DNA from: Cyclobacterium amurskyense
GTDB taxonomy: Bacteria > Bacteroidota > Bacteroidia > Cytophagales > Cyclobacteriaceae
NCBI RefSeq assembly: GCF_001050135.1
Contig: NZ_CP012040.1
Location: forward strand, 1,646,997 to 1,710,996
Reading direction: 5' to 3'
DNA length: 64,000 nucleotides
A program made the translations under genes and the position numbers. Below are positions 11,221 through 55,665 of the stretch, piece after piece. The notes under the pieces were generated by a model that was given only the letters and a program-made list of their open reading frames with translations, was not told the DNA's origin and did no database searches. The first letter of the stretch is position 1, and each line of letters opens with the position of its first letter.

Positions 11221-11257
11221 AAATTCTTGTTTATCTATTTTATCAAAATCACATTGA

Positions 11258-12019: not shown

Positions 12020-12051
12020 TTTTACACCTCTTTATAAACAAAGTCCAACCA

Positions 12052-13730: not shown

Positions 13731-13772
13731 GCCAAAACCACCACAAAAAAAGTCCAATAATGGACCATAAAA

Positions 13773-13800
13773 AAACCCATAGGCATTTGCCCATGGGTTT
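13773..13800. terminator. bidirectional hairpin terminator between convergent aroE and protease genes
   Basis: cccataggcatttgcccatggg hairpin flanked by an A-run upstream and a T-run downstream. Confidence 0.5.
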
Positions 13801-13825
13801 CATTTTACTTTTTATAATATCCTGC

Positions 13826-25660: not shown

Positions 25661-27364
25661 ATGGCCAATTTGAATATAAAAAGCAAAAAAGAAAATAGCT
25701 ATGACGCCATCGTCATCGGCTCTGGAATAAGTGGGGGATGGGCAGCGAAAGAATTCTGTGAGAAAGGATTGAATACCCTGGTACTTGAAAGAGGCCGCGA
25801 GGTAAAACATGTCAAAGATTACCCCACCACCAACAGCATGCCTTGGGAACTTGAGCACAGGGGTGGAATACTCCAAAGTGTAAAAGAAGAAAACCCGGTA
25901 GTAAGCAGGTGTTATGCTTATAAAGAAGATACAAAGCACTTCTTCGTAAAAGATACCGAACATCCCTATGTTCAAGAAAAACCCTTTGACTGGATTCGTG
26001 GCTACCAAACCGGAGGCAAATCCCTACTTTGGGCCAGACAGGTACAACGTTGGAGCGATTTCGATTTTGAAGGACCTGCCAGAGATGGATTTGCTGTTGA
26101 CTGGCCCATCCGCTACAAAGACCTGGCGCCTTGGTACAGCCATGTAGAAAAATTCATCGGCGTTTCGGGTAACAAAGACGGAAAACCAAATTTGCCTGAT
26201 GGGGAATTTTTGCCTCCATTTGAATTGACAGCCGGAGAAAAATATTTTAAGGAGTTTTTGAAAAACAATTACCCAGAAAGGGAAATTGTAGTTGCACGTT
26301 GTGCGCATATCACTGAGAACCAGGAATTCTATGCCAAGCAAGGCAGAACCCTGTGTCAAAACAGAACCCTTTGCCAGCGTGGATGTCCCTTTGGTGGATA
26401 TTTCAGTAGCAATTCCTCCACGCTACCTTGGGCTGCCAAAACAGGCAATCTTACCATGCACCATCATGCAGTGGTACACTCCATCATTTATGATGATGCC
26501 AAAGGTAAGGCTACGGGAGTAAGGGTAATCGATGCCCAAACCAAAGAAATGAAGGAGTTTTATGCAGACATCATCTTTGTCAATGCAAGTGCGCTGAATA
26601 CCAATTTGATTTTACTTAATTCTACTTCCAGTCGTTTCCCAAATGGCTTAGGTAATGACAGCGGTATACTGGGTAAATATGTTGCCTTTCATAATTACCG
26701 TGCAGGCATTTCAGCCGAATACGATGGACTGAAGGAATACACCACCGAAGGCAGAAGACCTACTTCAGGTTACTTCCCAAGGTTCAGAAACCTACACAAG
26801 CAGGAAACGAACTTCCTTAGAGGCTATGCGGCAGGTTTTAGCTCAGGAAGAAGCACGCATAATGATTATTCAGGCATAGGTGATGAATTGGAACAGTCCA
26901 TGGCCAAGGCACCGGAATACGGTCCTTGGAGAATGGGTTCTCACATGATGGGCGAAACCATTCCTAAAGAAGAAAGCCAGGTTAGCCTTGATCCTAATCT
27001 AAAAGACGAATGGGGCATTCCACAATTGAAAATCTCCATGGATTATGACGACAATGATGAGGCCATGATAAAAGATTATTTGGAGCAAATGTCGGAAATG
27101 TTTGAGGCGGCAGGTTTCACCAATATCCGTACTAGGGATGACAAACGTGCACCAGGCCTGGACATCCACGAAATGGGAGGAGCCAGAATGGGCAAAGACC
27201 CGAAAACATCCGTACTCAATAAATGGAATCAGGTACATGCTTGCCCAAATGTATACGTTACGGATGGGGCCTGTATGACCTCCACCAGCACCCAAAACCC
27301 TTCCCTTACTTATATGGCAATTACTGCAAGAGCAGTAGACCATGCAGTAAAGAATCGGGGATAA
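25661..27364 (+). CDS. GMC-family FAD oxidoreductase (gluconate 2-dehydrogenase flavoprotein-like)
   Basis: AIVIGSGISGGWAAKE FAD motif, 567 aa, GMC C-terminal region. Confidence 0.75.
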   Translation: MANLNIKSKKENSYDAIVIGSGISGGWAAKEFCEKGLNTLVLERGREVKHVKDYPTTNSMPWELEHRGGILQSVKEENPVVSRCYAYKEDTKHFFVKDTEHPYVQEKPFDWIRGYQTGGKSLLWARQVQRWSDFDFEGPARDGFAVDWPIRYKDLAPWYSHVEKFIGVSGNKDGKPNLPDGEFLPPFELTAGEKYFKEFLKNNYPEREIVVARCAHITENQEFYAKQGRTLCQNRTLCQRGCPFGGYFSSNSSTLPWAAKTGNLTMHHHAVVHSIIYDDAKGKATGVRVIDAQTKEMKEFYADIIFVNASALNTNLILLNSTSSRFPNGLGNDSGILGKYVAFHNYRAGISAEYDGLKEYTTEGRRPTSGYFPRFRNLHKQETNFLRGYAAGFSSGRSTHNDYSGIGDELEQSMAKAPEYGPWRMGSHMMGETIPKEESQVSLDPNLKDEWGIPQLKISMDYDDNDEAMIKDYLEQMSEMFEAAGFTNIRTRDDKRAPGLDIHEMGGARMGKDPKTSVLNKWNQVHACPNVYVTDGACMTSTSTQNPSLTYMAITARAVDHAVKNRG

Positions 27365-27405
27365 TTATAAATAAAAACCCATTACACCCTTTAAGGTGAA
27401 TCAAA

Positions 27406-27439
27406 TAGGCCGGGACATTGTTCTGGCCTATTTTTTTTT
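27406..27439 (+). terminator. rho-independent terminator
   Basis: taggccgg..ctggccta hairpin followed by T9. Confidence 0.55.
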
Positions 27440-27843
27440 GGGGGGGGTGAAAAATCTAGTCTTCCCACAACAAATCGTCAATGCGAACCCTTTTTTGGGG
27501 AGGGGGTTGGCGGGGACAAGGGTTTAGCAGTCTCGCTTAATGTGGTTCCCCTTACAGTAATTGGTCCCTGAGCTTGTCGAAGGATCTTAAATCTGTAAAA
27601 ATGATCGATAACATTTGATGTACGATGCATAAGATTTTGTCAGCATTATTGCTAAAAACAAGCAACAATACCGCCAAAATCATGATGTATATATCTCCTT
27701 ACCATGGGCTGCACACATGGCTTTGATATTTAGGCCTTTCAGGCCTTTAGTGAAATAGGTTTGTTTCCGAAATTATTTTCAAGCCATTTAATTGAAAATC
27801 TACCAGATATTCAATAACTTATAACAAATAAAAACCTAAAGCC

Positions 27844-27963
27844 ATGAACATAGTTTGGATTGTTATTTTACTTATTGCAGCAGCGCTAGGAGGAGCATTC
27901 GTTTACCTGATGGTAAATAAGATTAAGGAAAGCCAAAAATCAACAAAAGATAAATCCCTTTAG
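27844..27963 (+). CDS. possible 39-aa membrane peptide (MNIVWIVILLIAAALGGAFVYLMVNKIKESQKSTKDKSL)
   Basis: Short ORF not in the track. A single hydrophobic helix plus a basic tail. No other support. Confidence 0.25.
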   Translation: MNIVWIVILLIAAALGGAFVYLMVNKIKESQKSTKDKSL

Positions 27964-28011: not shown

Positions 28012-28082
28012 AAAAGCGGTAAAGTCCTTTTGGGGCATTTACCGCCTTTTTTATTTTCAATTACTTGAAGAAGTAGTAAACT
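28012..28082. repeat. left copy of a ~70-nt direct repeat (terminator-like hairpin plus conserved tail)
   Basis: gcggtaaa..tttaccgc hairpin, then cttttttattttcaattacttgaagaagtagtaaact. A 47-nt stretch is identical to 38398-38444. Confidence 0.8.
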
Positions 28083-28142
28083 CGGGCTATGAGTTTTCCC
28101 TTAAGTAAATAACTATAAAAAGCAATACAATTACGGGATGTT

Positions 28143-28892
28143 TTACTTTTTTAATTTCTCAATTTCCATCCTTAAAAGGTTAATCTGATCCGATATTTCG
28201 CCAGAGGTTTCAGGAATTCGTTTATAGAACACATAGCGAATACGCCAAAGCTCATAGATTTGCTTCGCGTTAAAAACTTGGTCATCAATGCCTTTATGAT
28301 CCGCCCTTAGCACATAACCTTTATCTGTGCTAAAATATCGTCTTACTAAAATATCGGTATCGGTGACAACTATTACAGGGGTTCGATTATTGAGTTTCTT
28401 ATAGGCTGATTTTGGAACTAATTCACCCACTACAACATCGTTAGGATAGAATCCCACATCCTGATTCGCCATTTCCAAATCAGTAACGGTGTAAGCCCTA
28501 AATATTTTCTCATTACTGATGGGCAAGCTCATCACAGGCAAGTCTGCAATAAAGTTTTTCTTTGAATGGTGATTAAGATAGTCTGCAACACACTCGGGTA
28601 ATATTATAGGCACCTTTGTTAAGGCCGCAACCTCCATCTGGTCTGCATCGGTAGTTAAATTGGTATTAAATTTCAATAATTGATTTATGGTCAATTCCTT
28701 TGTTAGCAAATCATCAATGGGGATGCTAAAATAATTTGCAATTTTGATGATAGTATCTATTTTAGGCTCACTACGTTCTTCCTCATAAGCGCCTAAAGTA
28801 GCTCTTTTAAGGTCAAAAACCTCTGCAAATGCTTGTTGAGATAGCAACTTCAAACTTCGTATTTTTTTAATATTCCTTCCAAAAAAAGACAT
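28143..28892 (-). CDS. XRE-family HTH regulator with C-terminal LexA/CI-like (S24-like) domain
   Basis: N-terminal HTH (LSQQAFAEVFDLKRATLGAYEEERSEPKIDTIIKIANYF). The C-terminal β-rich region resembles the S24 fold but shows no clear Ser/Lys dyad. Divergent from the pspA operon. Confidence 0.55.
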   Translation of the reverse strand: MSFFGRNIKKIRSLKLLSQQAFAEVFDLKRATLGAYEEERSEPKIDTIIKIANYFSIPIDDLLTKELTINQLLKFNTNLTTDADQMEVAALTKVPIILPECVADYLNHHSKKNFIADLPVMSLPISNEKIFRAYTVTDLEMANQDVGFYPNDVVVGELVPKSAYKKLNNRTPVIVVTDTDILVRRYFSTDKGYVLRADHKGIDDQVFNAKQIYELWRIRYVFYKRIPETSGEISDQINLLRMEIEKLKK

Positions 28893-29135
28893 GTTTTGCT
28901 AATTTAATTTGCATAAATCCATTTTATTACTATATTTGTTCTAGCAATATTAGTTAAAAGCAGCGGTATTGCAAATTATTTTAGCCAATCATTCAGGGAC
29001 TTAGCCGTGACCTAACTTGCTAATTACAGGGAATTTTACTTGTATTATTCAGCAAAAAAATTAAAATTACTTCGGCTATATCTTCTTTTTTTAGATTGTC
29101 ATAAGCGAAATTGTTACTTAAGCAAACAATAAATT

Positions 29136-29531
29136 ATGGATAACTATTATAATCGTATCATAGAATTTTTATTGAAACTGGATGTTGATATTACAAAAGA
29201 AAATCCTGACGAAGGGATCTTGGTAATCCAGAAAGAGGACAACGGTATCAAGAACCTTATTGTAGGGATTGTACCCCCGGTTTTAATTTTAGAGCAGTAT
29301 ATCTTTAAAATCAAAAACAATAACAACTCGATCTACAAAAGTTTATTGCAAAAAAACAGAGACATTATTCATGGAGCATTTGTACTGGATGACGATGGCG
29401 ATAAAGTAATTTTTAGGGACACACTTCAAATAGAAAACCTAGATCTAAATGAGATAGAAGCTTCCTTAAATTCTCTAAGTCTCTTACTGAGTGAATACTC
29501 GGAACAAATCATTAAGTTTTCTAAATACTAA
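29136..29531 (+). CDS. YbjN-like (type-III-secretion-chaperone-fold) protein
   Basis: 131 aa. The pattern is typical of the YbjN/CesT-Tir-like 'sensory transduction regulator' family. First gene of the operon. Confidence 0.4.
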   Translation: MDNYYNRIIEFLLKLDVDITKENPDEGILVIQKEDNGIKNLIVGIVPPVLILEQYIFKIKNNNNSIYKSLLQKNRDIIHGAFVLDDDGDKVIFRDTLQIENLDLNEIEASLNSLSLLLSEYSEQIIKFSKY

Positions 29532-29543
29532 AATTCAAAAACA

Positions 29544-30257
29544 ATGAACTTCTTGAAACGAATATTTAAAATAGGACAGGCGGAAGCAAACGCTGCTATA
29601 GATAATATGGAAGATCCAATAAAACTAACCGAACAAGGCATTCGAGATTTAAAATTGGATTTAAATAAAAATTTAGATTCGCTTGCTCAAGTTAAAGCAT
29701 TGGCTATACGTGCAAGAAATGATAAAAAAGAGATGGATAGTTCGGCTGAAGAATACTACAATAAAGCCGTTATTATAATAAAAAAAGGGAAATCGGGAGA
29801 ATTAGCTTCTGAGGAAGCCGATCGTTTGGCAAAACAGGCATTGTTAAAAAAAGAGGAAGCTTCCAAAAAGGCTATCCAATATGCAAACGAAGCAAGCAAG
29901 TTGCAAGAATCCGTAAATCAACTTGATGTAAACATTCAAGAGCTAAAAAGCACCATTAATAACTGGGAAAATGAGCTAAAAACACTTAAGGCCAGAGTGA
30001 AGGTGAGCAATGCAAAAAATAGCTTGAACAAACAAATGGCCCAGTTGGACAGTACAGGAACCGTATCTATGCTGGAGCGAATGAAAGAAAAAGTAAACCA
30101 AGAAGAGGCACTGGCTGAGGCGTATGGCGAAATAGCCAATAAGAATCAAAGCATAGACAGCGAGTTAGATAAGGCCGCGAATATCAGTGAAGCAAATGCT
30201 GACAATGAGCTGAATGAATTAAAGAAAAATCTTGGCCTAAATGATAAAAACACATAA
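29544..30257 (+). CDS. pspA: PspA/IM30 (ESCRT-III-like) family protein
   Basis: N-terminal FLKRIFKIGQAEANAAIDNMEDPIKLTEQGIRDLKLDL aligns with E. coli PspA [26 protein letters not shown]. Coiled coil throughout, 237 aa. Confidence 0.8.
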   Translation: MNFLKRIFKIGQAEANAAIDNMEDPIKLTEQGIRDLKLDLNKNLDSLAQVKALAIRARNDKKEMDSSAEEYYNKAVIIIKKGKSGELASEEADRLAKQALLKKEEASKKAIQYANEASKLQESVNQLDVNIQELKSTINNWENELKTLKARVKVSNAKNSLNKQMAQLDSTGTVSMLERMKEKVNQEEALAEAYGEIANKNQSIDSELDKAANISEANADNELNELKKNLGLNDKNT

Positions 30258-30259
30258 AA

Positions 30260-30958
30260 GTGGAAAACATTATTGACATTATATTTTCGAGTGTAAATCT
30301 ACCATTAAGTATTTTTACCATTATTTTGATCCTCTATTGGTTATTAACCATGATTAGTGGGATTGACTTTGACTTAGATATTGATGTTGATGCTGGTTTG
30401 GATGCTAATACCGGTTTAGAAAGTAGCAATATTGATTTTGAAGATGTAGCGAACGCGGAATTCAACGAGAAAGATGTAGCGGGAAATAGGCGAATGCAAT
30501 TAAAATGGTGGCAGGTATTTTTGATTTATTTCAATTTTGTAGGCTTGCCCTTTATGTTTACTTTCACAAGTTTTGTATTTGCCTGGTGGTTTATCACTTT
30601 GACTGTAACAACTATAACACATAGCTATTCAAACAGTATAGGCTTTATTTTTATGCTGGCCAGTTTTATCCCAGCACTAATTTTCACGAAAGTTTTCACA
30701 AGTCCATTCAAAGGTTTTTTCAAGGGTTTTAATAAAAACGGAGATAAGGCCATAGATTTTATCGGAAGAAAAGGCACAAGTTTATCTAGTATTGAAAAGG
30801 ATAAATTAGGCAATGCAGAATTTATCATCGATGGCAACCCTATGTCTGTTTACATCAAATCTTTAAATGGAGAAAAAATCAGTTTTAGAGAAATAGTTCT
30901 CATTATCAAAGAGTCAGAAGACAAAAGTTTTTATTACGCACAAGTATATAACGACTAA
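30260..30958 (+). CDS. YqiJ/NfeD-like membrane protein with C-terminal OB-fold
   Basis: N-terminal TM, acidic linker, two TM helices, C-terminal β-rich domain. Immediately precedes flotillin, as in yqiJK operons. Confidence 0.55.
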   Translation: MENIIDIIFSSVNLPLSIFTIILILYWLLTMISGIDFDLDIDVDAGLDANTGLESSNIDFEDVANAEFNEKDVAGNRRMQLKWWQVFLIYFNFVGLPFMFTFTSFVFAWWFITLTVTTITHSYSNSIGFIFMLASFIPALIFTKVFTSPFKGFFKGFNKNGDKAIDFIGRKGTSLSSIEKDKLGNAEFIIDGNPMSVYIKSLNGEKISFREIVLIIKESEDKSFYYAQVYND

Positions 30959-30967
30959 TTAACAACT

Positions 30968-33034
30968 ATGACAGAGATTCCATCATTATTGGCAATAGGA
31001 ATAGCGTTAATCGTATTCCTAATTATAATTTTCTTTGCAATTATTGCATTGTTCTATAAAAAGGTTCGCCAAGGCGAGGCCTTAATCCGTACCGGTTTTG
31101 GCGGAATCCAAATCGCCACCGATAAGGGCATGTATGTGGTTCCTTTATTTCACAAGTTAGAAATCATGGATATTTCTGTAAAGAAAATCCAGATCGAAAG
31201 ACTAGGATCTGAAGGCTTGGTATGTAAAGACAATATGCGAGCGGACATTAAAGTAGCATTTTTTGTTCGTGTCAACAACGACATAGAATTTATCAAAAGA
31301 GTAGCACAGACAATTGGTGCGGAGCGGGCTTCAAAAATCGAAACCCTTGAAGACTTGTTCGAGGCCAAATTTTCCGAAGCCTTAAAAACCGTGGGAAAAA
31401 AGTTTGATTTCATTGAACTGTATGAAGCCAGACGGGAGTTTAGGGATGAGATCGTAGATATAATAGGGACAGATCTAAACGGATATACCCTTGAAGATTG
31501 TGCGATCGATTTTTTAGAGCAGACTCCGGTAAATTATTTAAGGGCTGACAATATTCTAGATGCAGAAGGAATAAAGAAAATTACTGAACTGACAGCAGAG
31601 CAAAACAAAAAAGCTAACTTCATTAAACGTGATGAGGAAAAAGTCATACGAAAGCAAGATGTGGAGGCACGAGAAGCCATCTTGGAATTAGACCGGCAAT
31701 TGGCAGAAAAGGAGGAATCCCAACGTAGAGAGATTGCCAACATTAAAGCCAGAGAACAAGCGGACATCCTAAAGGTGGCCGAAGAAGAGCGATTAAAATC
31801 TGAAACTGCTAGAATAGCCACTGAGGAGAAAGTAAAGGTGGCTGAAGAAAATATGCAACGTCAGATCATTGTTGCAGAAAAGAACAAGGAACGAACCAAC
31901 GCTGTAGAAACGGAGCGAGTTGAAAAAGACAGAATGCTTGAGGCAACCGAAAGAGAACGTATAGTAACTCTTGCTCAAATTGAAAAGGAAAAAGTTGTTG
32001 AAGTTGAAAAGAAAAATATCCAAGATGTTATCCGGGACCGAGTGGCGCTTGAAAAAGGTGTGGTTCAGGAACAGGAGAACATGAAGGATATTGAGGCCTT
32101 TAAAACAGCAGATAGGGATAAAAAGGTGAAAATCACAATTGCAGAAGGTGTTGCAGAGGAAGAGCTTATTAAAGTAATTAAGCAAGCGGAATCCAAAAAG
32201 GAGGCCATGAAGCAACATGCCGAGGAAATTAACATTGAGGCACAGGCGAAAAAAGAAGCAAGTGCCAAAGAGGCAGAAGGTAGAAAAATCCTGGCAGAAG
32301 CAACCGCGAAAGAAGAAGCGACCATTGGATTGTCAGAGGCACAGGTTATGCATGCCAAAGCAGAAGCAAATGAACGCCAAGGAATTGTAGAGGCATTAAT
32401 AATTGAGAAAAAAGCCTTGGCTGAGGCCAGAGGAATTGAGGCTAATGCAGAAGCAAAACGCAAAGACGGATTGGCAGAAGCAGACGTTATTAAAGAAAAA
32501 GCCCTAGCCGATGCAGCCGGAATTGAAGAGAAGGCCAACGCAATGAAGAAATTAGATGGTGTGGGCAAAGAGCACGAAGAGTTTAAGCTTAAGTTGGATA
32601 AAGAATTACAGGTTGATTTGGCAGAAATCAATATTCAAAAAGCAATTGCAGATGCGCAGGCACAAGTGATTGGAGATGCCTTAAAAACTTCCAAAATTGA
32701 CATCGTGGGAGGAGAAACAATGTTTTTTGAGCAAATTATTGGTCAAATCACTAAAGCAAAAGGCTTTGATAGAATGGTAAATAACAGCACAAACATCCAG
32801 GAAATTAAGCAAGCCTTACTTGGTGACGGCAGTGGTAATGAGGGAGAATTATTGTCACGGATAAAAGATTTTGCTGAAAGGTATAACATCTCAAGTGAGG
32901 ATATCAAAAACGTCACAATTGCCAATTTATTGATGACTATGCAAAATCAGGCTACAGATAAAAATGAACAAAACGTGATTGGCAACCTTCTGAGTTTAGC
33001 TAAAGGCCTAGGGATTTCAGGAAATAAATTGTAA
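30968..33034 (+). CDS. flotillin / SPFH (band-7) family protein, YqiK-like
   Basis: N-terminal TM, SPFH domain (VRQGEALIRTGFGG...), a long E/A/K-rich coiled-coil region, 688 aa. Confidence 0.8.
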   Translation: MTEIPSLLAIGIALIVFLIIIFFAIIALFYKKVRQGEALIRTGFGGIQIATDKGMYVVPLFHKLEIMDISVKKIQIERLGSEGLVCKDNMRADIKVAFFVRVNNDIEFIKRVAQTIGAERASKIETLEDLFEAKFSEALKTVGKKFDFIELYEARREFRDEIVDIIGTDLNGYTLEDCAIDFLEQTPVNYLRADNILDAEGIKKITELTAEQNKKANFIKRDEEKVIRKQDVEAREAILELDRQLAEKEESQRREIANIKAREQADILKVAEEERLKSETARIATEEKVKVAEENMQRQIIVAEKNKERTNAVETERVEKDRMLEATERERIVTLAQIEKEKVVEVEKKNIQDVIRDRVALEKGVVQEQENMKDIEAFKTADRDKKVKITIAEGVAEEELIKVIKQAESKKEAMKQHAEEINIEAQAKKEASAKEAEGRKILAEATAKEEATIGLSEAQVMHAKAEANERQGIVEALIIEKKALAEARGIEANAEAKRKDGLAEADVIKEKALADAAGIEEKANAMKKLDGVGKEHEEFKLKLDKELQVDLAEINIQKAIADAQAQVIGDALKTSKIDIVGGETMFFEQIIGQITKAKGFDRMVNNSTNIQEIKQALLGDGSGNEGELLSRIKDFAERYNISSEDIKNVTIANLLMTMQNQATDKNEQNVIGNLLSLAKGLGISGNKL

Positions 33035-33043
33035 AACTTATCG

Positions 33044-33093
33044 CGTTCAATGTCTTACTGCAAAAGCTTAATAAGTGCATTGAACGTATTTTT
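33044..33093 (+). terminator. hairpin terminator or attenuator between flotillin and the giant ATPase gene
   Basis: cgttcaatg...cattgaacg 9-bp stem with a long loop, followed by tattttt. Confidence 0.35.
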
Positions 33094-33198
33094 CTATTCC
33101 AAAAAGTTATTCTTAAAACAACACGCAAATGTTAGCATTGAGCAGCTCATGTGTAAATTATTCACGTAAGTTACGCACACCTATATAGCACAACTCCA

Positions 33199-36100
33199 AT
33201 GACTGAACCTAATAAAACGGAACAAAAGCAAATTTTAGATGGTGGCACATATGAAATCATTAGAAACAGGTTACAAAAGCATAAACAAGACCTTCAAAAT
33301 CGGTTAAACCAACTAAATGAGGATCGTAAAGCTGTTTTTGGTGCTTTAGAAACAAAACTAATCGCTAATGATAGAATTTCCACAGAAAATAATTGTATCG
33401 CACGTGATATCGTTTCTTTTGGGAATACTTGTGTGTTTGGCTATAATGTGCATTTTGGCTTACGTACAGATATAAAGCTCAATGACGTATTTAGCGTATA
33501 CAGTTTTACCAATAACAGGTTTGAAGCCATAGGGCTAGATTTTATAGAAGACGTTCAGTTTCAAGCAGATTTTGATAATCTATACAAATACTACCGAAAT
33601 ACCATCTTTGCGAGATTTGCCAAAATAGGCAATTTTCTATACATGATTTTTCAATTGAGTGAAAGTGTCACTGATATTAAGGCATTTAAATGGCTTATCA
33701 AAGATGGAAAACTGGTATATGTAGACAACAGAAGCGATCATGAATACAAGTTCCCTGCCCAATATGAGTTTAAATGGCTAGAAGTTACTCGTGATATGCA
33801 CCGGTATGGGGTGCATTCACATGTTTCAATATTGGATAAAGTATTTGTAGAGGCAATAGGAGGAGATCTTACCATAAAAATAGAGGACAATACAGAAGAT
33901 GGTAAAGGGGTCTATGATGAACCTGTAGATTACCCAGATCAAACGCTAGACGATGCACAGTACAAATATGCAGATTTAGGAAATCTTATTCTTATTGATA
34001 TAAAACCATTTCAAGAAGATTCCAGATTTTTTGTATACAATCACAAGGTACAGGAAGTGCAAAAAATTGACAGTTTACGAGAAGCTGCGGTACTTCTACC
34101 TGATGACCAAGGAATTATTTTTCCGACAGGTTATTATTTGCAAACCGGAGAATACCATGTTTTCGATAATAGCATCCCCAATGTAAAGTTTGTTTCGCGA
34201 ATTGCTTCTCCCAATGGTGAAGATTATATGTTCGTGTTCTATTCACCCTCGGAAGGTTTGTATATTCTAATGAGTTATAATGTGATCACTCAACAGATTG
34301 TCACGCCTATTATTTGTAATGGTTACACCATTTTACAAAATGGAGAACTTAGTTACTTTAAGGGTGAAGGAGAGCAAACCAAGCATCATGTGGTACAAAT
34401 TTGGCAAACTCCTTATTTAAAAGGTGATTTCATCCCAAGTAAACACACGGACTCGCTATTGTATAAAATCGGAAATAAAGACATTGTCAAAGCCATGGCT
34501 GAAAGCAATGCCTTGATCAATTTACTCAACAAAGATGATAATTATGAGGGCCTATATGAGGATGTTTCCAAGGCCGCAAAAGACCTATTGGACTCGTATT
34601 ATTGGATTAAGGAACCGGATACACAGGATCTTTCTGCACCTCTAAATGAAATTAGTGATGCAGCCAATGCTGCTATAGATGAATTTACAAAGGTTGTTCA
34701 ATTAAAAAAATCGGCTGCAAGCCAATCAAAGGCTTTGCAAAATAAAGCAGATGAACTTTTTGTTATAATAAAAAGCACCTCATTTAATAGCATCAATGAT
34801 TTTGTATCAATGTTAACCCAGCTTCGTGGCTTAAGGGGCGAAACCATTGAATTAAACGATGTTCGCTATGTAAATACCGACTACACCAAGGAACTTGAAA
34901 ATACGATTGCCGAGTATTCCGACAATATTGCTCAGCAATGTGTAGCATTTTTACTTAATGATGATGCATTGGCGCCTTATAAGTTGCAAGTTGAGGAAAA
35001 GAAAATGGCTTTGGAAAAAGTCACTAAAGTAATCGAAGCCAAGCAACTTGAGGAAGAGGTAAATCAAATTGCAAGGGATTTAGAGTTATTGATTGAAATT
35101 GTATCCAATTTAGAAATTGAAGACACATCCCAATCAACTAAAATAATCGATCATATTTCCTTGATTTTTGCCACGTTAAATCAGCTCAAAGCCGCAATAA
35201 AAAACAAACGCAAATCTCTGGGCAGCAAAGAAGCCATTGCTGATTTTTCTGCGCAAATAAAATTGGTGGACCAAAGCATTATCAACTATTTGGATATTGC
35301 CGATACCCCCGAAAAATGTGATGAATACCAAACCAAAGTATCTATTCAACTGGAAGAATTGGAAGGTAAATTTGCAGATTATGATGCGTTTATTCCCAAA
35401 ATAATTGAGAAACGGGAGGAAGTCCATGCGGCTTTTGACAATAAAAAAACGGGCTTAATTGAGCGACGAAATAAAAAATCAATTGCTTTAAAAACTGCAA
35501 CAGCACGCATTTTAAAAGGAGTTGCCAAAAAAGCAGAAACCTTAAAATCCACTGCAGAAATAAATGGTTATTTCGCATCCGACTTAATGATCAACAAGGT
35601 CCGTGACATCATCGATCAGCTAAATGAATTGGATGAAAGTGGGAATGCAGAAGAAGTAGCCACTTCTTTAAAGGTTGCCAAGGAAGATGCCTTACGTAAA
35701 TTAAAAGACAAGCAGGAGCTGTTTGAAGATGGCGAAAACGTTATTAAACTGGGCAAGTACAAATTTGGTGTAAATAAACAGCCCCTAGATATAACCATCG
35801 TTTTCAAAGACAATCACCTCAATTATCATCTAACAGGGACAGATTTCTATCAAAAACTGACCAACAAAGTACTGGTAAACAGCCAGAAATATTGGGATCA
35901 AGAATACCCTTCTGAAAACATCACAGTATATAGGGGGAGTTACCTAGCTTTTAAACTGTTTAAGGAAACACCCTGGGACCAATTGGCGGATGCCTCCCAG
36001 GAAAACTTGGTTCAATTGGTAAAAAAGGCAAGCAGTGCCAACTACAATGAAGGGTATACAAAAGGGGTACACGATGAGGATGCGGCAAAAATTTTACTAA

Positions 36101-38067
36101 CCCTAGTGAATACGCATAAAGACTTGGGTTTACTGCGTTACTCACCTGCCATAAGAGCCCATGCACAATACAGTTGGTATTCATTTACTGAAAAGGAACG
36201 CCTGCATCTTAATCGGATGATAAAAGCGGCTGGATCTGTTTTGGAAGTATTCCCTTATTCTAAAGAGTTTAATTACCTGATAGATGAATTGCAGCAAAAA
36301 ATCCATAGGCTTATTTCTGAAACTCAGCTATTTTCAAGTGCTGAAATTAATGTTATTTCAAATTATTTGTTTGAAGAATTGCAGGGTAATGATGCCTTTG
36401 AAGTAAGTTCAGAAGCAGAGAAATTAAGGCAAGCCTTTAATAATGTCATGAAAGCAAAAAATGCTGATTTACGTTTTAAAGAAGCCATTGACAATACCAG
36501 TACATTTCATGAGAAAATAAAACTCGCAAGGCAATGGGTTGCTGCATTCATCAATCAGGAGCATCCAAAGAATGCCCGTTATATTGATGAGATCGTTTGT
36601 AATTGCTTGTTTGATCAACCCATTGCAAAAAAGAAAATGATTTCGCCAAATGCTGTCATTCATAATTTAGCGGGAAACCACCATACCATTATTGAAGGAG
36701 AATTTCATTTTAATTATCATGATTTTGTGGCTACTTTAACTCATTTCACAAATGAGGAGGTAGCCGCTTACCAAGCCTTTAAAAAGGCAAAAACCGATAT
36801 TACCCTTCAGTTAAAAGAGCAGTTAAAATTGGAAGAGTATAAACCTCAGGTTCTGACTTCCTTTGTGCGTAACAAACTAATCGATCAGGTTTATTTGCCA
36901 TTATTTGGAGAGAACCTGTCCAAACAACTTGGTACCGTGGGGAACAATAGTCGGACAGATAGAATGGGGCTTTTGCTTTTGATTTCGCCTCCAGGCTACG
37001 GTAAAACCACTTTGATGGAATACATTGCCAACCGATTGGGCTTAGTGTTCATGAAAATTAACGGGCCAGCCATAGGCCATGAGGTTACCTCGGTAGACCC
37101 TGAAGCAGCCACAAATAGTGCAGCAAAAGAGGAGTTAAAAAAGCTGAATTTAGCCTTTGAAATGGGAAATAACGTAATGTTGTATTTAGACGATATTCAA
37201 CATTGCCATCCAGAGTTTTTACAAAAATTCATATCCCTTTCCGATGGCACCAGAAAAATTGAAGGAATATATAACGGAAAGCCACGTACCTATGACCTTC
37301 GAGGCAAAAAGTTCTGTGTAATAATGGCAGGAAACCCCTATACAGAGCGTGGGGCAAAATTCCAGGTTCCAGACATGCTATCCAACCGAGCCGATATTTA
37401 TAATCTTGGGGACATTATAGGCGATTCAGACCATCAGTTTAACCTTAGCTTAATAGAAAATTCTTTAACTAGCAATCCTGTATTGAATCAACTGAGGAAT
37501 AAATATCTTGAAGATGTTTATACCTTGTTAAATCGGGTTGAAAACGAAACACAGGACGGTGTACTTCATGGTAATCACACCAATCAAGAAATTCAGGATT
37601 ACTTAAGCGTAATCCAAAAGGTTTTAAAGATAAGAGACACTGTACTCAAAGTAAACCAAGCTTATATAGAAAGCGCTGCTAAGGATGATGCCTACAGGAC
37701 TGAACCCCCATTTAAACTACAAGGTTCTTATCGAGACATGAATAAACTGGTATCCAAAGTGGTTCCTATTATGAACAATAAGGAGTTACAAAATCTTTTG
37801 TTGTCGCATTACGAAAGTGAGGCACAAACGCTTACAAGTTCCGCCGAAGCCAACTTATTAAAATACAAAGAACTAACTGGCACAATTACACCAATAGAAC
37901 AAGCTAGATGGGGTGAAATAAAAACCACTTTTATTAAAAACAACAAGTTAAGAGGCTTAGGAAATCAAGATGAAATGGCACAGGTAGTGCTGCAAATGGT
38001 CAATTTCAGTGATAACCTGGAAGGCATAAAAGAAGTGCTAGAACGCGCCATTAAGGCGAAAGGGTAA
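33199..38067 (+). CDS. 1622-aa protein with single C-terminal MoxR/dynein-like AAA+ ATPase domain and large N-terminal region of unknown function
   Basis: Walker A LLLISPPGYGKTTLME, Walker B VMLYLDD, sensor-1 CVIMAGNP, arginine-finger/sensor region DMLSNRADIYN. The ~1200 N-terminal residues have no recognisable motif and several coiled-coil stretches. Confidence 0.65.
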   Translation: MTEPNKTEQKQILDGGTYEIIRNRLQKHKQDLQNRLNQLNEDRKAVFGALETKLIANDRISTENNCIARDIVSFGNTCVFGYNVHFGLRTDIKLNDVFSVYSFTNNRFEAIGLDFIEDVQFQADFDNLYKYYRNTIFARFAKIGNFLYMIFQLSESVTDIKAFKWLIKDGKLVYVDNRSDHEYKFPAQYEFKWLEVTRDMHRYGVHSHVSILDKVFVEAIGGDLTIKIEDNTEDGKGVYDEPVDYPDQTLDDAQYKYADLGNLILIDIKPFQEDSRFFVYNHKVQEVQKIDSLREAAVLLPDDQGIIFPTGYYLQTGEYHVFDNSIPNVKFVSRIASPNGEDYMFVFYSPSEGLYILMSYNVITQQIVTPIICNGYTILQNGELSYFKGEGEQTKHHVVQIWQTPYLKGDFIPSKHTDSLLYKIGNKDIVKAMAESNALINLLNKDDNYEGLYEDVSKAAKDLLDSYYWIKEPDTQDLSAPLNEISDAANAAIDEFTKVVQLKKSAASQSKALQNKADELFVIIKSTSFNSINDFVSMLTQLRGLRGETIELNDVRYVNTDYTKELENTIAEYSDNIAQQCVAFLLNDDALAPYKLQVEEKKMALEKVTKVIEAKQLEEEVNQIARDLELLIEIVSNLEIEDTSQSTKIIDHISLIFATLNQLKAAIKNKRKSLGSKEAIADFSAQIKLVDQSIINYLDIADTPEKCDEYQTKVSIQLEELEGKFADYDAFIPKIIEKREEVHAAFDNKKTGLIERRNKKSIALKTATARILKGVAKKAETLKSTAEINGYFASDLMINKVRDIIDQLNELDESGNAEEVATSLKVAKEDALRKLKDKQELFEDGENVIKLGKYKFGVNKQPLDITIVFKDNHLNYHLTGTDFYQKLTNKVLVNSQKYWDQEYPSENITVYRGSYLAFKLFKETPWDQLADASQENLVQLVKKASSANYNEGYTKGVHDEDAAKILLTLVNTHKDLGLLRYSPAIRAHAQYSWYSFTEKERLHLNRMIKAAGSVLEVFPYSKEFNYLIDELQQKIHRLISETQLFSSAEINVISNYLFEELQGNDAFEVSSEAEKLRQAFNNVMKAKNADLRFKEAIDNTSTFHEKIKLARQWVAAFINQEHPKNARYIDEIVCNCLFDQPIAKKKMISPNAVIHNLAGNHHTIIEGEFHFNYHDFVATLTHFTNEEVAAYQAFKKAKTDITLQLKEQLKLEEYKPQVLTSFVRNKLIDQVYLPLFGENLSKQLGTVGNNSRTDRMGLLLLISPPGYGKTTLMEYIANRLGLVFMKINGPAIGHEVTSVDPEAATNSAAKEELKKLNLAFEMGNNVMLYLDDIQHCHPEFLQKFISLSDGTRKIEGIYNGKPRTYDLRGKKFCVIMAGNPYTERGAKFQVPDMLSNRADIYNLGDIIGDSDHQFNLSLIENSLTSNPVLNQLRNKYLEDVYTLLNRVENETQDGVLHGNHTNQEIQDYLSVIQKVLKIRDTVLKVNQAYIESAAKDDAYRTEPPFKLQGSYRDMNKLVSKVVPIMNNKELQNLLLSHYESEAQTLTSSAEANLLKYKELTGTITPIEQARWGEIKTTFIKNNKLRGLGNQDEMAQVVLQMVNFSDNLEGIKEVLERAIKAKG

Positions 38068-38371
38068 ACTGAAATTACTACTTTGCTGAGGCTGAAAGAA
38101 CCTAAATACAACAAAAAACGGTAATTTTCTTCTAAAAGGTTTTTAACTGTTTTCACTCCACTCAGTTCAAACCAATAACTCACTTTTGACAAGGCACAAG
38201 GCATGTTAAAACTTTTCAGAAATGTGCAACAAACATAGATGATTCACAAGTCGAGGCTCCTACTGAGAAACTGAACCTTGATCAACCCCTTCCGAGGTTG
38301 AGGTAATGATGAATTATTCAACGGCTATGGGGTTTTCAACTATGGTTAATATAATTGAAGCCCAAACATAA

Positions 38372-38444
38372 AAAAGGCGGTAAATATCCCTAAGGGACAT
38401 TTACCGCCTTTTTTATTTTCAATTACTTGAAGAAGTAGTAAACT
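38372..38444. repeat. right copy of the direct repeat
   Basis: ggcggtaaat..atttaccgcc hairpin with compensatory stem changes relative to the left copy, then an identical 47-nt tail. Abuts the lspA stop. Confidence 0.8.
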
Positions 38445-39085
38445 TACTTCTCGTCAATAAACTGTTTTTGAACCTGGTCCTCTTCTTCTTTTTCTTCATG
38501 CTCCTCATTTTCTTCATCAAAGAAACGTTTCTGGAAAATAAGAATGATGCCTACTCCTACAAAAATGGAAGCATCTGCTATATTGAAAATTGGCCATAAG
38601 GCAGTATAGCCTCCACCAAAGATTGGAATCCATTCCGGAACAAAACCTTCCCAAATATCAACATAAAACATGTCAACAACTTGTCCATGAAACCATGGCG
38701 TAGAAGCATCAAAAGGTGCATTACCTAACCAAACACCGTAAAATACACTGTCGATAAGGTTTCCTACAGCCCCTCCTAAGATCATGGCAATACAAATTAT
38801 GTATCCCGGATGTGCCTTTTTACTTATCAAAGAATATAAATAATAGCCTATTCCGAACATGGCTATCAAGCGAAAGCTGGTCAACATAAGTTTACCATAT
38901 TCTGAGCCTAGTTGCATCCCAAATGCCATTCCGGGGTTGGTGGTGTAATGCAGCTTGAACCAATCTCCAAAAACTTTGATCTGCCCTGCTGTGCCAAAAT
39001 CCATTCCGTAATGAACCATCATCTTCACCGCCTGATCAATCACAATCACCAGTAAGGTGATGCCAAAATACTTCCAATACTTCAT
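38444..39085 (-). CDS. lspA: lipoprotein signal peptidase II
   Basis: Four TM helices, conserved Asp-containing boxes (NLIDSVFYG, FNIADASI). Classic position downstream of ileS. Unusual acidic C-terminal tail. Confidence 0.8.
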   Translation of the reverse strand: MKYWKYFGITLLVIVIDQAVKMMVHYGMDFGTAGQIKVFGDWFKLHYTTNPGMAFGMQLGSEYGKLMLTSFRLIAMFGIGYYLYSLISKKAHPGYIICIAMILGGAVGNLIDSVFYGVWLGNAPFDASTPWFHGQVVDMFYVDIWEGFVPEWIPIFGGGYTALWPIFNIADASIFVGVGIILIFQKRFFDEENEEHEEKEEEDQVQKQFIDEK

Positions 39086-39088
39086 ATG

Positions 39089-42000
39089 TTATACTTTCTC
39101 TACTTTAACGGCGAGTTCAAACTCATCCATGTCCAATACGGTGGAATTATTACTATCCCCATCTAGGGTTAACGCAAGTGCCTGTGTCTCTGTTTTAATA
39201 TAATCAGAGAAATTCAACAAAGCATTGTCCACGGTTTCATTAAGTGGAGCAATCTGAATTCGAATCTTATCCTGAACTTCCAGCCCCATATCTTTACGAA
39301 GGTTCTGAATCCTGTTGACAAAATCCCTGGCAACACCTTCTTCCTTCAGCTCGGTAGTCAAAGTAACATCCAATGCCACAGTAATTCCATTGTCTGTAGC
39401 TACAGACCAACCTGGAATATCCTGAGACTGAATCAACACTTCTTCAAGTTGAAGCAAGACAGATTCACCATCTAATTGTATGCTGGCTTGCCCCTCTTTT
39501 TCAATTTGAGCAATTTCTTCTTTGCCCCACTGCTGAATAATTTGGCTAACAGCTTTCATTTTCGGCCCAAACCGTTTGCCCAACAAGGCGAAATTGGGCT
39601 TGATGCTTTTCACCAAAATGTCAGAGGTATCATCAATGTATTCGATTGATTTTATATTAACTTCTGATTTAATTAGGTCCTCTACATGTTCAATTAAAGC
39701 CTTGGTATCTTCATTCAATACAGGAATAAGTACTTTCTGAAGTGGTTGCCTTACCTTTAATCTTTCCTTTTTCCTTAAGGAATGCACCAAAGAGGAAATG
39801 TCCTGAGCCAACTGCATGCTATTTTCAAGGGACAAGTTAATCAAACCCTCATCAGATAATTTCCAATCCGTCAGGTGCACGGACAAAGGTTTGCTCTCTA
39901 GACTTGCAGTAAGGTTTTGGAACAACCAATCTGCATAAAAAGGAGCTATCGGCGATATCAAGCTGGAAATAACTTCCAGACATTCATACAAAGTCTCATA
40001 AGCTGCTTGCTTATCAGCATTCATGTCTCCTCTCCAGAACCGCTTTCTGGCCAACCGCACATACCAGTTGGACAACTGGTCTACAGTGAAATTCATAATG
40101 GCCCTTGAGGCTGGTGTTACATCATAATTTTCGTAGGCAGTTTCTGTTTCTTTTATCAGCGACTGAAGTTTGGAAAGAATCCATTGATCAAGTTCAGGGC
40201 GCTCATTAACAGGTATTTTGTTTGATGAATCGTAAGCGAAGGCATCCAAATTGGCATATAAAGCAAAGAAATTGTAAGTGTTTTGAAGTGTACCAAAGAA
40301 CCTCCTTTGCACTTCCACTACTCCTTCTTTATTGAATTTAAGGTTGTCCCAAGGGTTGGCATTGCTTAACATGTACCAGCGCAAAGCGTCAGGACCAAAC
40401 TCCTTAAGGGTTATAAATGGATCTACTGCATTTCCCAAACGCTTGGACATTTTATTGCCGTTCTTATCCAATACCAAACCGTTGGCGATCACATTTTTAA
40501 AGGCTACACTATCAAATAGCATCACTGCCAACGTATGAAGCGTAAAAAACCAACCTCTGGTCTGGTCAACGCCTTCGGCTATAAAATCAGCTGGATAGTT
40601 GGCTTTAAAGATGTCTTCATTTTCGAAAGGATAATGCCATTGTGCATAAGGCATGGCTCCGGAATCAAACCAAACATCGATAAGGTCTGGCTCACGGAAC
40701 ATCTTGTCTCCATTGTCTGCTACCAACACAATATCATCAACAAAAGGACGGTGGAGATCCACTTCTTTTCCTTTATAGGGAGATTCTTTCATATAACCTT
40801 TGGCAACCGATTCTTCTATAGCTGCTTCTAATTCAGCTACAGACCCGATGCATTTGGTCTCGGTTCCTTCTTTGTTTCTCCAGATAGGCAAAGGTGTTCC
40901 CCAAAATCTCGAGCGACTCAAATTCCAGTCAACAAGATTCTCCAGCCAATTTCCAAACCTGCCGGTTCCGGTAGATTCAGGTTTCCAGTTGATGGTTTTA
41001 TTAAAAGCAACCAGTTTGTCCTTGTATGCAGTGGTTTTGATAAACCAGCTTTCTAGCGGGTAATATAAAATAGGCATGTCCGTACGCCAGCAATGTGGGT
41101 AGCTATGCTCGTACTTCTCTACCTTAAAAGCCTTGTTTTCATTTTTCAGAATGATGGAAATAATGACATCTGTGCTCTTGTAAGCCTTGTCACTTTCATC
41201 ATCGTGACTATAATTTTTGACATAAAAGTCATCTACACCAAAGATCTTGTGTACGGGGATTTCATGCTCTTCAATTTTGGAAAGCAAATACTCGCCCACA
41301 ACAGGAAGAAACTTACCCTTCTTGTCAACAATAGGTATTTCAAGCCCTTTTTCATCTTTAAGGAATACACCAGGAACATCTTGTTGCACAAGTGTTCTAA
41401 AGTCATCGGCTCCAAATGCTTTGGCCAGGTGAACTACCCCTGTTCCATCTTCTGTGGTCACATAATCTGCCGAGATCACCGTAAATGCCGGTTCAGGAAG
41501 CTCAAGTGCCATTATAGGGAACAATTGTTCGTACTTCAAGCCCATAAGGTCCTTGCCTTTCATTTCCTCAACGATTTGATAAGGAATGATTTTGTCTCCA
41601 GGCTTATAGGCATCCAATTCTACCTTAGCTCCTTTAGGATTAAAATAGGCCGACATTCTGGCTTTCGCTAAAAGAACCGTCTGAGGTGCAAAAGTATAAG
41701 GATTGAAAGTTTTAACTTTTACATAATCCAACTTCTCACCTATGGCAAGGGCTGAATTAGAAGGCAAAGTCCATGGGGTGGTGGTCCAGGCCAATATATA
41801 AAGATCCTCTTCACCTTTCACCTTGAATTGGGCGGTGATAGATGTGTCTTTAACATCCCGGTAACTTCCCGGTTGATTGAGTTCATGGGAACTTAGTCCC
41901 GTTCCTGCTGCAGGAGAATAGGGCTGAATGGTGTAGCCTTTGTAGATAAGGTCTTTGTCATATAGCTTTTTGAGCAGGTGCCACAGACTCTCTACGTACT

Positions 42001-42463
42001 TTACATCAAAGGTGATGTAAGGGTCGTCCAAATCTACCCAATAGCCAATTTTTTCTGTCAGGTCATCCCATTCATGCTTGTAGCGCATGACGGTTTCCCT
42101 ACATTTTTGATTGTATTCTTCTACGGAGATTTTCTTACCGATGTCCTCCTTGGTGATGCCAAGTTCTTTTTCAACCTGCAACTCAACAGGAAGGCCATGG
42201 GTATCCCATCCTCCTTTTCTTTTTACCTGGAAACCTTTAAGGGTTTTGTATCGGCAAAAGACATCTTTAATTGCCCTGGCCATTACATGGTGAATTCCCG
42301 GGGTACCATTGGCTGAAGGTGGGCCTTCATAAAAGGTATAGGCAGGTGCTCCCTCCCTATTGCTAATGGATTTTTCAAAAACGGCATTGGTTTTCCAAAA
42401 AGCCAATACATCTTCCCCAATTTTGGGATAATCTACCTGTTTAAACTCCTGATATTTCTTCAC
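39089..42463 (-). CDS. ileS: isoleucine--tRNA ligase
   Basis: 1124 aa with class-I HIGH (PSANGTPGIHH) and KMSKS (KMSKRLGN) motifs and an editing domain. Confidence 0.9.
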   Translation of the reverse strand: MKKYQEFKQVDYPKIGEDVLAFWKTNAVFEKSISNREGAPAYTFYEGPPSANGTPGIHHVMARAIKDVFCRYKTLKGFQVKRKGGWDTHGLPVELQVEKELGITKEDIGKKISVEEYNQKCRETVMRYKHEWDDLTEKIGYWVDLDDPYITFDVKYVESLWHLLKKLYDKDLIYKGYTIQPYSPAAGTGLSSHELNQPGSYRDVKDTSITAQFKVKGEEDLYILAWTTTPWTLPSNSALAIGEKLDYVKVKTFNPYTFAPQTVLLAKARMSAYFNPKGAKVELDAYKPGDKIIPYQIVEEMKGKDLMGLKYEQLFPIMALELPEPAFTVISADYVTTEDGTGVVHLAKAFGADDFRTLVQQDVPGVFLKDEKGLEIPIVDKKGKFLPVVGEYLLSKIEEHEIPVHKIFGVDDFYVKNYSHDDESDKAYKSTDVIISIILKNENKAFKVEKYEHSYPHCWRTDMPILYYPLESWFIKTTAYKDKLVAFNKTINWKPESTGTGRFGNWLENLVDWNLSRSRFWGTPLPIWRNKEGTETKCIGSVAELEAAIEESVAKGYMKESPYKGKEVDLHRPFVDDIVLVADNGDKMFREPDLIDVWFDSGAMPYAQWHYPFENEDIFKANYPADFIAEGVDQTRGWFFTLHTLAVMLFDSVAFKNVIANGLVLDKNGNKMSKRLGNAVDPFITLKEFGPDALRWYMLSNANPWDNLKFNKEGVVEVQRRFFGTLQNTYNFFALYANLDAFAYDSSNKIPVNERPELDQWILSKLQSLIKETETAYENYDVTPASRAIMNFTVDQLSNWYVRLARKRFWRGDMNADKQAAYETLYECLEVISSLISPIAPFYADWLFQNLTASLESKPLSVHLTDWKLSDEGLINLSLENSMQLAQDISSLVHSLRKKERLKVRQPLQKVLIPVLNEDTKALIEHVEDLIKSEVNIKSIEYIDDTSDILVKSIKPNFALLGKRFGPKMKAVSQIIQQWGKEEIAQIEKEGQASIQLDGESVLLQLEEVLIQSQDIPGWSVATDNGITVALDVTLTTELKEEGVARDFVNRIQNLRKDMGLEVQDKIRIQIAPLNETVDNALLNFSDYIKTETQALALTLDGDSNNSTVLDMDEFELAVKVEKV

Positions 42464-55239: not shown

Positions 55240-55560
55240 TTATCGACCTTCGGAGCCTTTTGAGTTGTAAATCAAATCCCGGTACATTTTCACAGGCTTT
55301 TTCAATGATAGATTGCTTTTTTTTTCATAGGTTAAAATGTTGAATATTAACGATAAGTCTAATGTAGGAAGAAACGGCAATAAAGCCGGATTCCTGCCTT
55401 AGCAGGATTCGTTCAACAATCGCTAAAATAGAGCGGGGGCGAAGTGTTTACCGCAGCTGTGTTTGCCTTAGTTAGCTTTTCACGGTTGGACAGAAACGCA
55501 CTTTGAAATCCCGCCTTATCTTAGCGGAAACGTTGGGCTTCATTCCGATTTTCACTCATA

Positions 55561-55665
55561 CAATTGTAATCGTATTTCATGAAATAAACGAATTAATAAT
55601 TATAATTCATGAAAAGTAATTGATTTTCATGCTATATTTATAATCGTATTTCATAGAAAAGTATA
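55561..55665 (+). promoter_or_regulatory. array of TTTCATGAAA-type palindromes and direct repeats upstream of the fic gene
   Basis: Perfect 14-bp palindrome TATTTCATGAAATA, plus AATTCATGAAAA, ATTTTCATGC and TATTTCATAGAAA. AATCGTATTTCAT occurs twice. Confidence 0.5.

Follow-up and report, generated by a model that had tools for sequence, protein, structure and literature searches.

The stretch of DNA analysed here, called the window throughout, is a 64,000-nucleotide (nt) piece of the Cyclobacterium amurskyense genome (contig NZ_CP012040.1, positions 1,646,997 to 1,710,996). Between a GMC oxidoreductase gene and the lspA-ileS pair it carries two copies of a direct repeat, 10.36 kb apart, which enclose a 10.3-kb insert of six genes spanning 28143-38067 (Table 1). 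These six genes, referred to below as the module, comprise a regulator with a helix-turn-helix (HTH) domain and a divergent operon of five genes. The left side of the repeats is occupied by the GMC gene, a Gluconate_2-dh3 subunit gene and sm39, a small open reading frame (ORF) that is called as a gene in many contigs and retains 87-100% amino-acid (aa) identity across species. We consider it probable that the repeat is a duplicated lspA/sm39 terminator-trailer unit that marks the insertion of a horizontally acquired operon into a Cyclobacterium hotspot.

A 47-nt sequence, catttaccgccttttttattttcaattacttgaagaagtagtaaact, is found exactly twice in the window, both times on the forward strand, where shuffles of the window are expected to hold none; the identity of the two stretches, noted in a preliminary description of this DNA, is thereby borne out. 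No third copy exists in the 64 kb at up to three mismatches, and no further match was found there when the hairpin, the 3' arm with its T-run, and the 29-nt trailer were queried separately. In both copies the 47-mer is composed of the 3' arm of a hairpin, a T-run and a trailer, and homology continues leftward of it to give about 72 nt at 90% identity; in most population contigs the identical core measures 51 nt rather than 47. Beyond the window, a 32-mer of the repeat had no match among about 185,000 species genomes, the repeat had none in viral contigs, and the trailer pattern in JGI metagenomes matched only the two copies on one TARA contig.

The stop codon of lspA (TAA, read as its reverse complement) occupies 38444-38446, and the right copy overlaps it by one base, as the preliminary description had indicated in saying that the copy touches the stop codon. 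That description had also spoken of precise bracketing. All six genes are indeed enclosed, but the bracketing is only approximate, with 60 nt between the left copy and the stop codon of the HTH gene and about 300 nt between the AAA+ stop codon and the right copy. Two candidate features of these gaps were rejected: a 15-nt motif (GGCTATGAGTTTTCC at 28084, GGCTATGGGGTTTTCA at 38322), considered as a pair of arm sites, is weak and not conserved in C. qasimii and was attributed to chance, and the 60 nt past the left copy, considered as a decayed lspA fragment, reach only about 50% identity with gaps.

Table 1. Features of the repeat-flanked locus, with positions in the window.
Feature	Position	Strand	Description
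GMC oxidoreductase gene and its own terminator	25661-27433	+	Gene 25661-27364, terminator 27403-27433; left core flank of the hotspot
D1	27632-27757		Structured non-coding element; other haplotypes repeatedly break at its right edge (~27753-27757)
sm39	27844-27963	+	39-aa ORF with a single transmembrane segment; converges on lspA in empty-site genomes
Left copy	28012-28082	+	A-tract, imperfect hairpin (gcggtaaag...catttaccgcc), T-run, 30-nt trailer; between convergent sm39 (+) and HTH gene (-)
47-nt core, left instance	28036-28082	+	3' arm, T-run, trailer
HTH regulator	28143-28892	-	XRE family, 249 aa; HTH_3, HTH_19; divergent from the operon; left end of the module
Five-gene operon	29136-38067	+	Pfam
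CesT/Tir-like	29136-29531	+	CesT_Tir_1 (Pfam)
PspA/IM30	29544-30257	+	PspA_IM30 (Pfam)
Membrane protein	30260-30958	+	232 aa; no Pfam match, YqiJ/YuaF label from position only
SPFH/flotillin	30968-33034	+	Pfam
AAA+ ATPase	33199-38067	+	1622 aa; DUF3686-DUF7902-AAA+ (Pfam)
Non-coding spacer	38068-38372		AAA+ stop codon to right copy; not homologous to the C. qasimii spacer there (MITE-like element)
Right copy	38373-38444	+	3' arm, T-run and trailer as in left copy; perfected 5' arm; directly downstream of lspA
47-nt core, right instance	38398-38444	+	Ends on the first base of the reverse-complemented lspA stop codon
lspA	38444-39085	-	Signal peptidase II; core gene whose terminator and trailer are duplicated; protein 100% identical to the one named C. 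amurskyense LspA at NCBI
ileS	39089-42463	-	Follows lspA

Window proteins were mapped by tblastn onto 80 lspA loci of Cyclobacteriaceae, and the loci were also read directly; those closest to the window all belong to Cyclobacterium. Unoccupied sites are present in three genomes, Cyclobacterium sp. 1_MG-2023 (L012), a Cyclobacterium metagenome-assembled genome (L011) and C. marinum DSM 745 (L125), where about 100-120 nt, containing one terminator, separate sm39 from lspA. An empty site with one copy of the repeat is what the preliminary description had predicted. From the sm39 stop codon through the 5' arm of the hairpin, the empty-site sequence is collinear with the left copy of the window, the 5' arm of which is the arm seen in the empty-site genomes and in C. 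qasimii. This collinearity indicates that the left copy stands at the ancestral position and that its imperfect 5' arm is the ancestral one. The 30-nt trailer that separates the terminator from the lspA stop codon varies in type by lineage: the window, C. qasimii and a further contig (L014) have type A, C. marinum, L011 and three other loci (L106, L003 and L124, described below) have type B, and L012 has a type of its own. For the species of the window itself, look-ups with LspA, CesT and sm39 returned only occupied sites or a haplotype with a defence-associated reverse transcriptase (DRT), and for those with the Glu2dh3 and HTH proteins there was nothing on record.

The module has a GC content of 0.32-0.38, compared with 0.40-0.45 in its flanks. 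Homologues of the HTH protein are found in three Cyclobacterium lineages (99%, 94% and 76%), and the best others all come from Flavobacteriaceae, at 54-60% identity. The gene order of the operon also recurs in Nonlabens, where it lies among the housekeeping genes truB, bacA, ftsX and leuS with no recombinase or integrase nearby, and in another contig of Flavobacteriaceae type (L110), an uncultured one in which an integrase is located about 3.5 kb from the module, beyond a GH92 gene. The same six genes make up the module in the L106 lineage and in Flavobacteriaceae. By these measures the operon is foreign in composition and affinity, and its most likely source would be the Flavobacteriaceae. 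Given the empty sites in three relatives together with this foreign composition and affinity, the segment between the repeats is indeed an insertion, as the preliminary description had it.

An operon that joins a CesT/Tir-associated PspA, a TM-band-7-type flotillin, a novel AAA+ ATPase and a YqiJ/YuaF-type membrane protein has been described previously (Ravi et al. 2024, PMC11237479). The module of the window has the same domain content and order; it differs in being a patchily distributed, horizontally acquired Cyclobacterium insert with a divergent XRE regulator and with duplicated host terminators on its flanks. Apart from the HTH protein, none of the module proteins matches a PADLOC model.

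We then consider the repeat as a structure. The right copy is a near-perfect palindrome (inverted repeat 38365-38419), to which a terminator scan assigned a 20-pair stem (8 GC) followed by a T-run on the reverse strand; its stem spans 20-23 bp, with an A-tract on one side and a T-run on the other. Its predicted RNA fold reaches -34.5 kcal/mol on the forward and -37.2 kcal/mol on the reverse strand (z ~ -9), and that of the left copy -24.7 and -20.5 kcal/mol, respectively (z ~ -3.5). Both copies lie just downstream of convergent genes, sm39 and the HTH gene on the left and the AAA+ gene and lspA on the right. We infer that the repeat unit consists of a bidirectional intrinsic (Rho-independent) terminator, with predicted terminator activity, and the 30-nt lspA trailer. 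It resembles known bidirectional intrinsic terminators in its GC-containing stem of 20-23 bp, its A-tract and T-run, its position between convergent genes, and a fold far more stable than those of shuffled sequences; it differs from them in that the whole unit, trailer included, is present twice, 10.36 kb apart, and is known here from sequence. No known RNA family accounts for the repeat: an Rfam scan around the left copy gave nothing significant, and the only match in the window above the gathering threshold is a thiamine pyrophosphate (TPP) riboswitch elsewhere (RF00059, 20134-20230, reverse strand, 73 bits, E = 1.7e-12).

The two copies show six differences, including two 1-nt indels, all in the 5' arm and loop and all confined to the first 25 of 72 alignment columns (P ~ 0.001). 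The 3' arm of the hairpin (catttaccgcc) lies inside the identical 47-mer and is the same in both copies, and the changes in the right copy pair bases that are bulged or mismatched in the left copy (two of them bulged), so that the change is one-sided and no pairs covary. The compensatory stem changes reported in the preliminary description thus disappear on direct alignment, and the selected structured element that it had argued from them loses its ground, since only one arm differs. The clustering of the differences indicates that the two parts of the repeat differ in history and meet at a recombination or conversion breakpoint inside the hairpin.

Two observations concern the trailer itself. 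A small hairpin of 5-7 bp lies between the lspA stop codon and the main terminator both in the window (38416-38444) and in the unrelated type-B trailers of L125, L011 and L106, and conservation of the type-B terminator-trailer across species exceeds that of lspA synonymous sites. This hints that the 3' untranslated region of lspA may be functional.

The occupied arrangement is not limited to the window. Most marine metagenome contigs with an identical LspA reproduce it at 98-99.7% identity, and both sequenced strains of C. qasimii carry the module between sm39 and lspA, flanked by a perfect 70-nt direct repeat. The repeated unit of C. qasimii starts with the A-tract at the foot of the hairpin, and its last base immediately precedes the lspA stop codon, so that it represents the whole terminator plus trailer; the left junction is shared with the window and reads ...gtagtaaact|cgagatatgag there. 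Within each species the two copies carry the same trailer variant, caattacttg in both copies of the window and caaatatttg in both copies of C. qasimii. One variant contig (L094) combines a left copy of the window type with a right copy of the C. qasimii type, next to an lspA segment 94% identical to that of the window.

Between the window and C. qasimii, the synonymous divergence (dS) of the module genes is 0.27-0.63, compared with 0.8-2.3 for flanking core genes. Identity in sliding windows is about 0.92 for the module against about 0.85 for the left flank, with a sharp drop past the AAA+ stop codon; the sm39 flank outside the repeat is unusually similar in the two species (92-96%). In the L106 lineage the module is located at the same locus without sm39 and without the repeat, and its allele is much more divergent, with a nonsynonymous divergence (dN) of 0.10-0.15 against 0.02-0.07 for core genes; homology between the two modules stops at the stop codon of the HTH gene. 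Alleles of the module have thus passed between species. Residence of the module at this locus evidently does not need the repeats, since one related lineage holds it there without them, an arrangement that the preliminary description had named as evidence against its own reading.

The gap between sm39 and lspA accommodates various cargo in related genomes: a type I restriction-modification (R-M) system, a DRT, PDC-M65, the PspA module, or nothing. A contig whose LspA is identical to that of the window (L003) has, in place of the module, a DRT gene of the RT_UG5-nitrilase type (E = 4e-188) and a truncated type I methylase, and its homology to the window ends exactly at the lspA stop codon. The cargo of L014 consists of HsdR, HsdS and HsdM together with GmrSD, and the truncated methylase of L003 looks like the remnant of an island of this type. 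PDC-M65A/B is the cargo of a C. marinum-like contig (L124). As in known defence-island hotspots, the same intergenic position holds different and unrelated cargo, or none, in closely related genomes; the window differs in that its cargo is an operon of the envelope-stress type with no match to known defence models. In L003 the hotspot (10697-16284) has about 1 kb of structured non-coding DNA adjoining the DRT gene.

Other haplotypes of this hotspot also contain duplicated pieces of flank. In L124, a 233-nt segment made up of the last 170 nt of lspA, the trailer and the terminator is repeated 920 nt downstream. Together with the 136 nt that follow it, the second copy matches the L106 lineage at 98.6% identity but the resident C. 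marinum lspA at only 92%, which indicates that donor cargo brought a piece of the donor's flank along. L124 (10472-11756) and L106 (470-832) share the partial lspA, the terminator and the 136-nt spacer, making L124 an inter-lineage recombinant, and PDC-M65 in L124 follows the spacer that precedes the PspA module in L106; the shared spacer implies that the cargo was swapped and that the breakpoint lay about 20 nt away from its genes. In L003, the 3' end of the GMC gene, its terminator and the element D1 are each present twice at 78-88% identity. D1 is also a low-copy dispersed element, which makes its share of this evidence weaker. Flank duplication thus appears to be a recurrent by-product of recombination at the hotspot, and in the case of the window the lspA stop codon is where the duplicated flank ends. 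The preliminary description had proposed a special type of island without a recombinase of its own; this is not supported, because the locus is a general hotspot whose other haplotypes show different duplicated flank pieces.

The sequence of events that we favour would start from a single terminator-trailer unit between convergent sm39 and lspA. The foreign 10.3-kb operon, with its XRE regulator and its CesT-PspA-membrane-flotillin-AAA+ genes, would have been inserted into this intergenic hotspot by a recombination event that left one copy of the unit on each side. The module would have brought no terminators of its own, and each copy would now insulate a convergent pair, sm39 from the HTH gene and the AAA+ gene from lspA; both copies plausibly serve as bidirectional terminators for these new pairs. 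A fragment might have entered with a piece of its own flank and been joined homologously at one end and illegitimately at the other, or a circular intermediate might have been integrated by a single crossover within the terminator. The recombination behind the duplication may accordingly have been of either kind, or may have been carried out by an integrase that was later lost. Subsequent movement of the module among Cyclobacterium lineages would have occurred by homologous recombination in or near the flanks.

Several points weigh against this sequence of events. The novel junction falls exactly at the lspA stop codon (...gtagtaaact|cggg), where a random illegitimate joint would rarely fall, and a site-specific event would fit better. 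The species-specific trailer variants shared by both copies imply non-allelic gene conversion, or a repeat that was created anew at each integration; by parsimony, there would have been at least one exchange of sequence between the copies of a genome, unless integration re-formed the repeat from resident sequence. Taken together, the stop-codon joint, the same junction in two species and the identical copies within a genome fit an integration, site-specific or of the Campbell type, in which the circular molecule bore a terminator copy. No empty site with a type-A trailer was found among the loci compared, nor a donor or recipient haplotype showing the pre-insertion state with the same trailer type. 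The copy number of the repeat across the genome is, moreover, supported indirectly, through the window and the public collections.

One rival explanation treats the two copies as the attachment sites (attL and attR) of a degenerate integrative element: a circular element whose attP mimics the lspA 3' trailer and terminator would have been integrated at the lspA 3' end by a site-specific recombinase, and the integrase gene would later have been deleted or would have acted in trans. It draws on direct repeats around foreign DNA with one copy at the empty site, on a location at the 3' end of a gene both essential and conserved, with a junction that falls exactly at the stop codon and is the same in two species, and on the spacer beside the right copy, the usual position of an integrase gene, which is non-homologous between the window and C. 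qasimii and so suggests turnover. Pfam found no integrase among the six module genes, which agrees with the preliminary description in placing neither an integrase nor a transposase inside the module; annotation of the neighbouring genes shows no recombinase for about 10 kb on either side, and a tblastn search of the window with a Bacteroidota integrase gave no homologue (E >= 1). No repeat is anchored at the 3' end of lspA within 10 kb at any of the 80 Cyclobacteriaceae loci, on which grounds a role of this end as a general attB was rejected. The same six genes travel in L106 and in Flavobacteriaceae, with no recombinase near the Nonlabens copies and the L110 integrase some way off, and strand exchange at a fixed core could not alone account for trailer variants of the host type in attL and attR alike. 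Excision products were not seen in the contigs examined. Known islands at gene 3' ends, such as the duplications of e14 and phage 21 at icd and the islands in tRNA genes, are likewise bounded by attL/attR repeats, and the window shares with them direct repeats of tens of nt derived from a conserved gene 3' region, foreign DNA of low GC content, and a single copy when empty. It differs in having no integrase, excisionase or other mobility gene, in a repeat that consists of untranslated trailer and terminator only, and in showing no sign of excision. We regard this explanation as unlikely.

A mobile cassette without a recombinase is very doubtful. In this scheme, RecA-mediated recombination between the 47-70-nt repeats would excise a circle with one terminator, and re-entry by a single crossover would regenerate the repeats. 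The species-specific variants imply an exchange of sequence between the copies, a module whose divergence between two species is about half that of the core genes has moved between lineages, and a host-like left 5' arm, a different right 5' arm and an identical remainder are what a Campbell-type crossover predicts. Against this, homology of 47-70 nt is a poor substrate for RecA, L106 has the module without repeats, and the similarity of the sm39 flank between species points to ordinary homologous replacement of a larger block. No circle junction was found, and no empty site of the window's species or trailer type. The mobilisation by recombination between repeats that the preliminary description had envisaged likewise finds no evidence: neither a deletion nor a circle form occurs among about 40 metagenome contigs, although assemblies are a weak assay for rare products. 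One contig of 10,371 nt (L096) had been considered as a circle; both of its ends lie inside the repeats, exactly where k = 31 unitigs must break, and it was set aside as an assembly artefact. The other contigs that start or end inside the repeats (L008-L010, L119 and L121) likewise break where shared k-mers force breaks. A broader version of the idea, in which the lspA terminator-trailer would act as a landing pad for exchange of recombinase-less cargo (through RecA, or a chromosomal enzyme acting in trans on the hairpin) and the PspA-flotillin-AAA+ operon would be one swappable cassette in a defence hotspot, itself perhaps a membrane-protecting anti-phage system, seems to us distinctly improbable.

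That the repeat is a mobile terminator resembling a repetitive extragenic palindromic (REP) sequence or a miniature inverted-repeat transposable element (MITE), which made a second copy of itself elsewhere with no involvement of the module, is scarcely credible. It is a palindromic extragenic element, and other MITE-like elements adjoin the lspA terminator in relatives; yet only two copies exist in 64 kb even for the hairpin arm alone, and the repeat includes the gene-specific lspA trailer at a position orthologous to the single copy of the empty sites. The genome, metagenome and viral collections together revealed no dispersed copies of the repeat, and the REP-like element that the preliminary description had offered as an alternative is not borne out. 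Other classes of element were also rejected. A transposon target-site duplication would measure 2-15 bp, and the repeat of 47-72 nt has no terminal inverted repeats beyond the hairpin and no transposase. An integron cassette with attC does not match either: the insert, at 10.3 kb and six genes, is equipped with a divergent regulator and a promoter region, and neither an array nor a tyrosine recombinase accompanies it, a comparison made without specific scoring of attC motifs. Carriage of the module by phage was dismissed on the finding that viral contigs contain no CesT relatives, and no viral or plasmid-like carrier of the module was found.

We therefore return to the duplicated terminator-trailer unit: the repeat is neither an att site of a self-mobile element nor a member of a dispersed REP family. 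Homology-facilitated illegitimate recombination, or one-sided insertion, is known from natural transformation in Acinetobacter, Streptococcus and Pseudomonas, and the donor-derived partial lspA or GMC sequences carried in with cargo in L124 and L003 resemble its products. The window departs from that pattern in a joint exactly at the stop codon and in repeats that are identical where inter-lineage divergence would be expected, and its mechanism is read from sequence. The repeat is a real and fairly ordinary insertion scar, and no new class of mobile element. It provides a clean, dated example of a multi-gene envelope-stress operon entering a Cytophagales genome, and it lies in a previously undescribed Cyclobacterium cargo hotspot, from GMC/sm39 to lspA, in which the PspA module and defence systems take each other's place. 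The core-gene ends and terminators that recur as duplicates in these haplotypes are usable as markers for reconstructing recombination events. The sharing of the hotspot with defence systems hints weakly at a possible role of the PspA-flotillin-AAA+ operon in defence, against phage or of the envelope.

Several further features of the locus were recorded. D1 contains two small hairpins; its right edge (27753-27757) recurs as a breakpoint in L003, L014 and L094, and C. marinum has an extra diverged copy of it upstream of ileS (L125, 5808-5923). Several Cyclobacterium genomes have MITE/REP-like elements adjoining the lspA terminator and again in its vicinity (L013, 4840-5060; L014, 10740-11100 and 5800-6150; L003, 10740-10870); they have internal inverted repeats, gagcggagtcgaa...ttcggctccgctc, and ccggcgg motifs, and no copy is found in the window. 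Some homologues of the HTH protein (e.g. P0051 and P0061) have a Peptidase_S24 match, which suggests that the protein may be a CI/LexA-like repressor of the PspA operon whose self-cleavage domain has perhaps degenerated. An inverted repeat of 35 nt, perfect over a core of 18 nt (GCTAAAATAATTTGCAAT / ATTGCAAATTATTTTAGC), has one arm in the 5' coding end of the HTH gene (28725-28759) and the other in the divergent HTH/CesT promoter region (28951-28985), and is a candidate operator for the XRE regulator. At a distance from the locus, an AT-rich intergenic region of the window (55559-55705) contains a pair of adjoining 73-nt direct repeats at 73% identity, in which the motif TTTCATG recurs.

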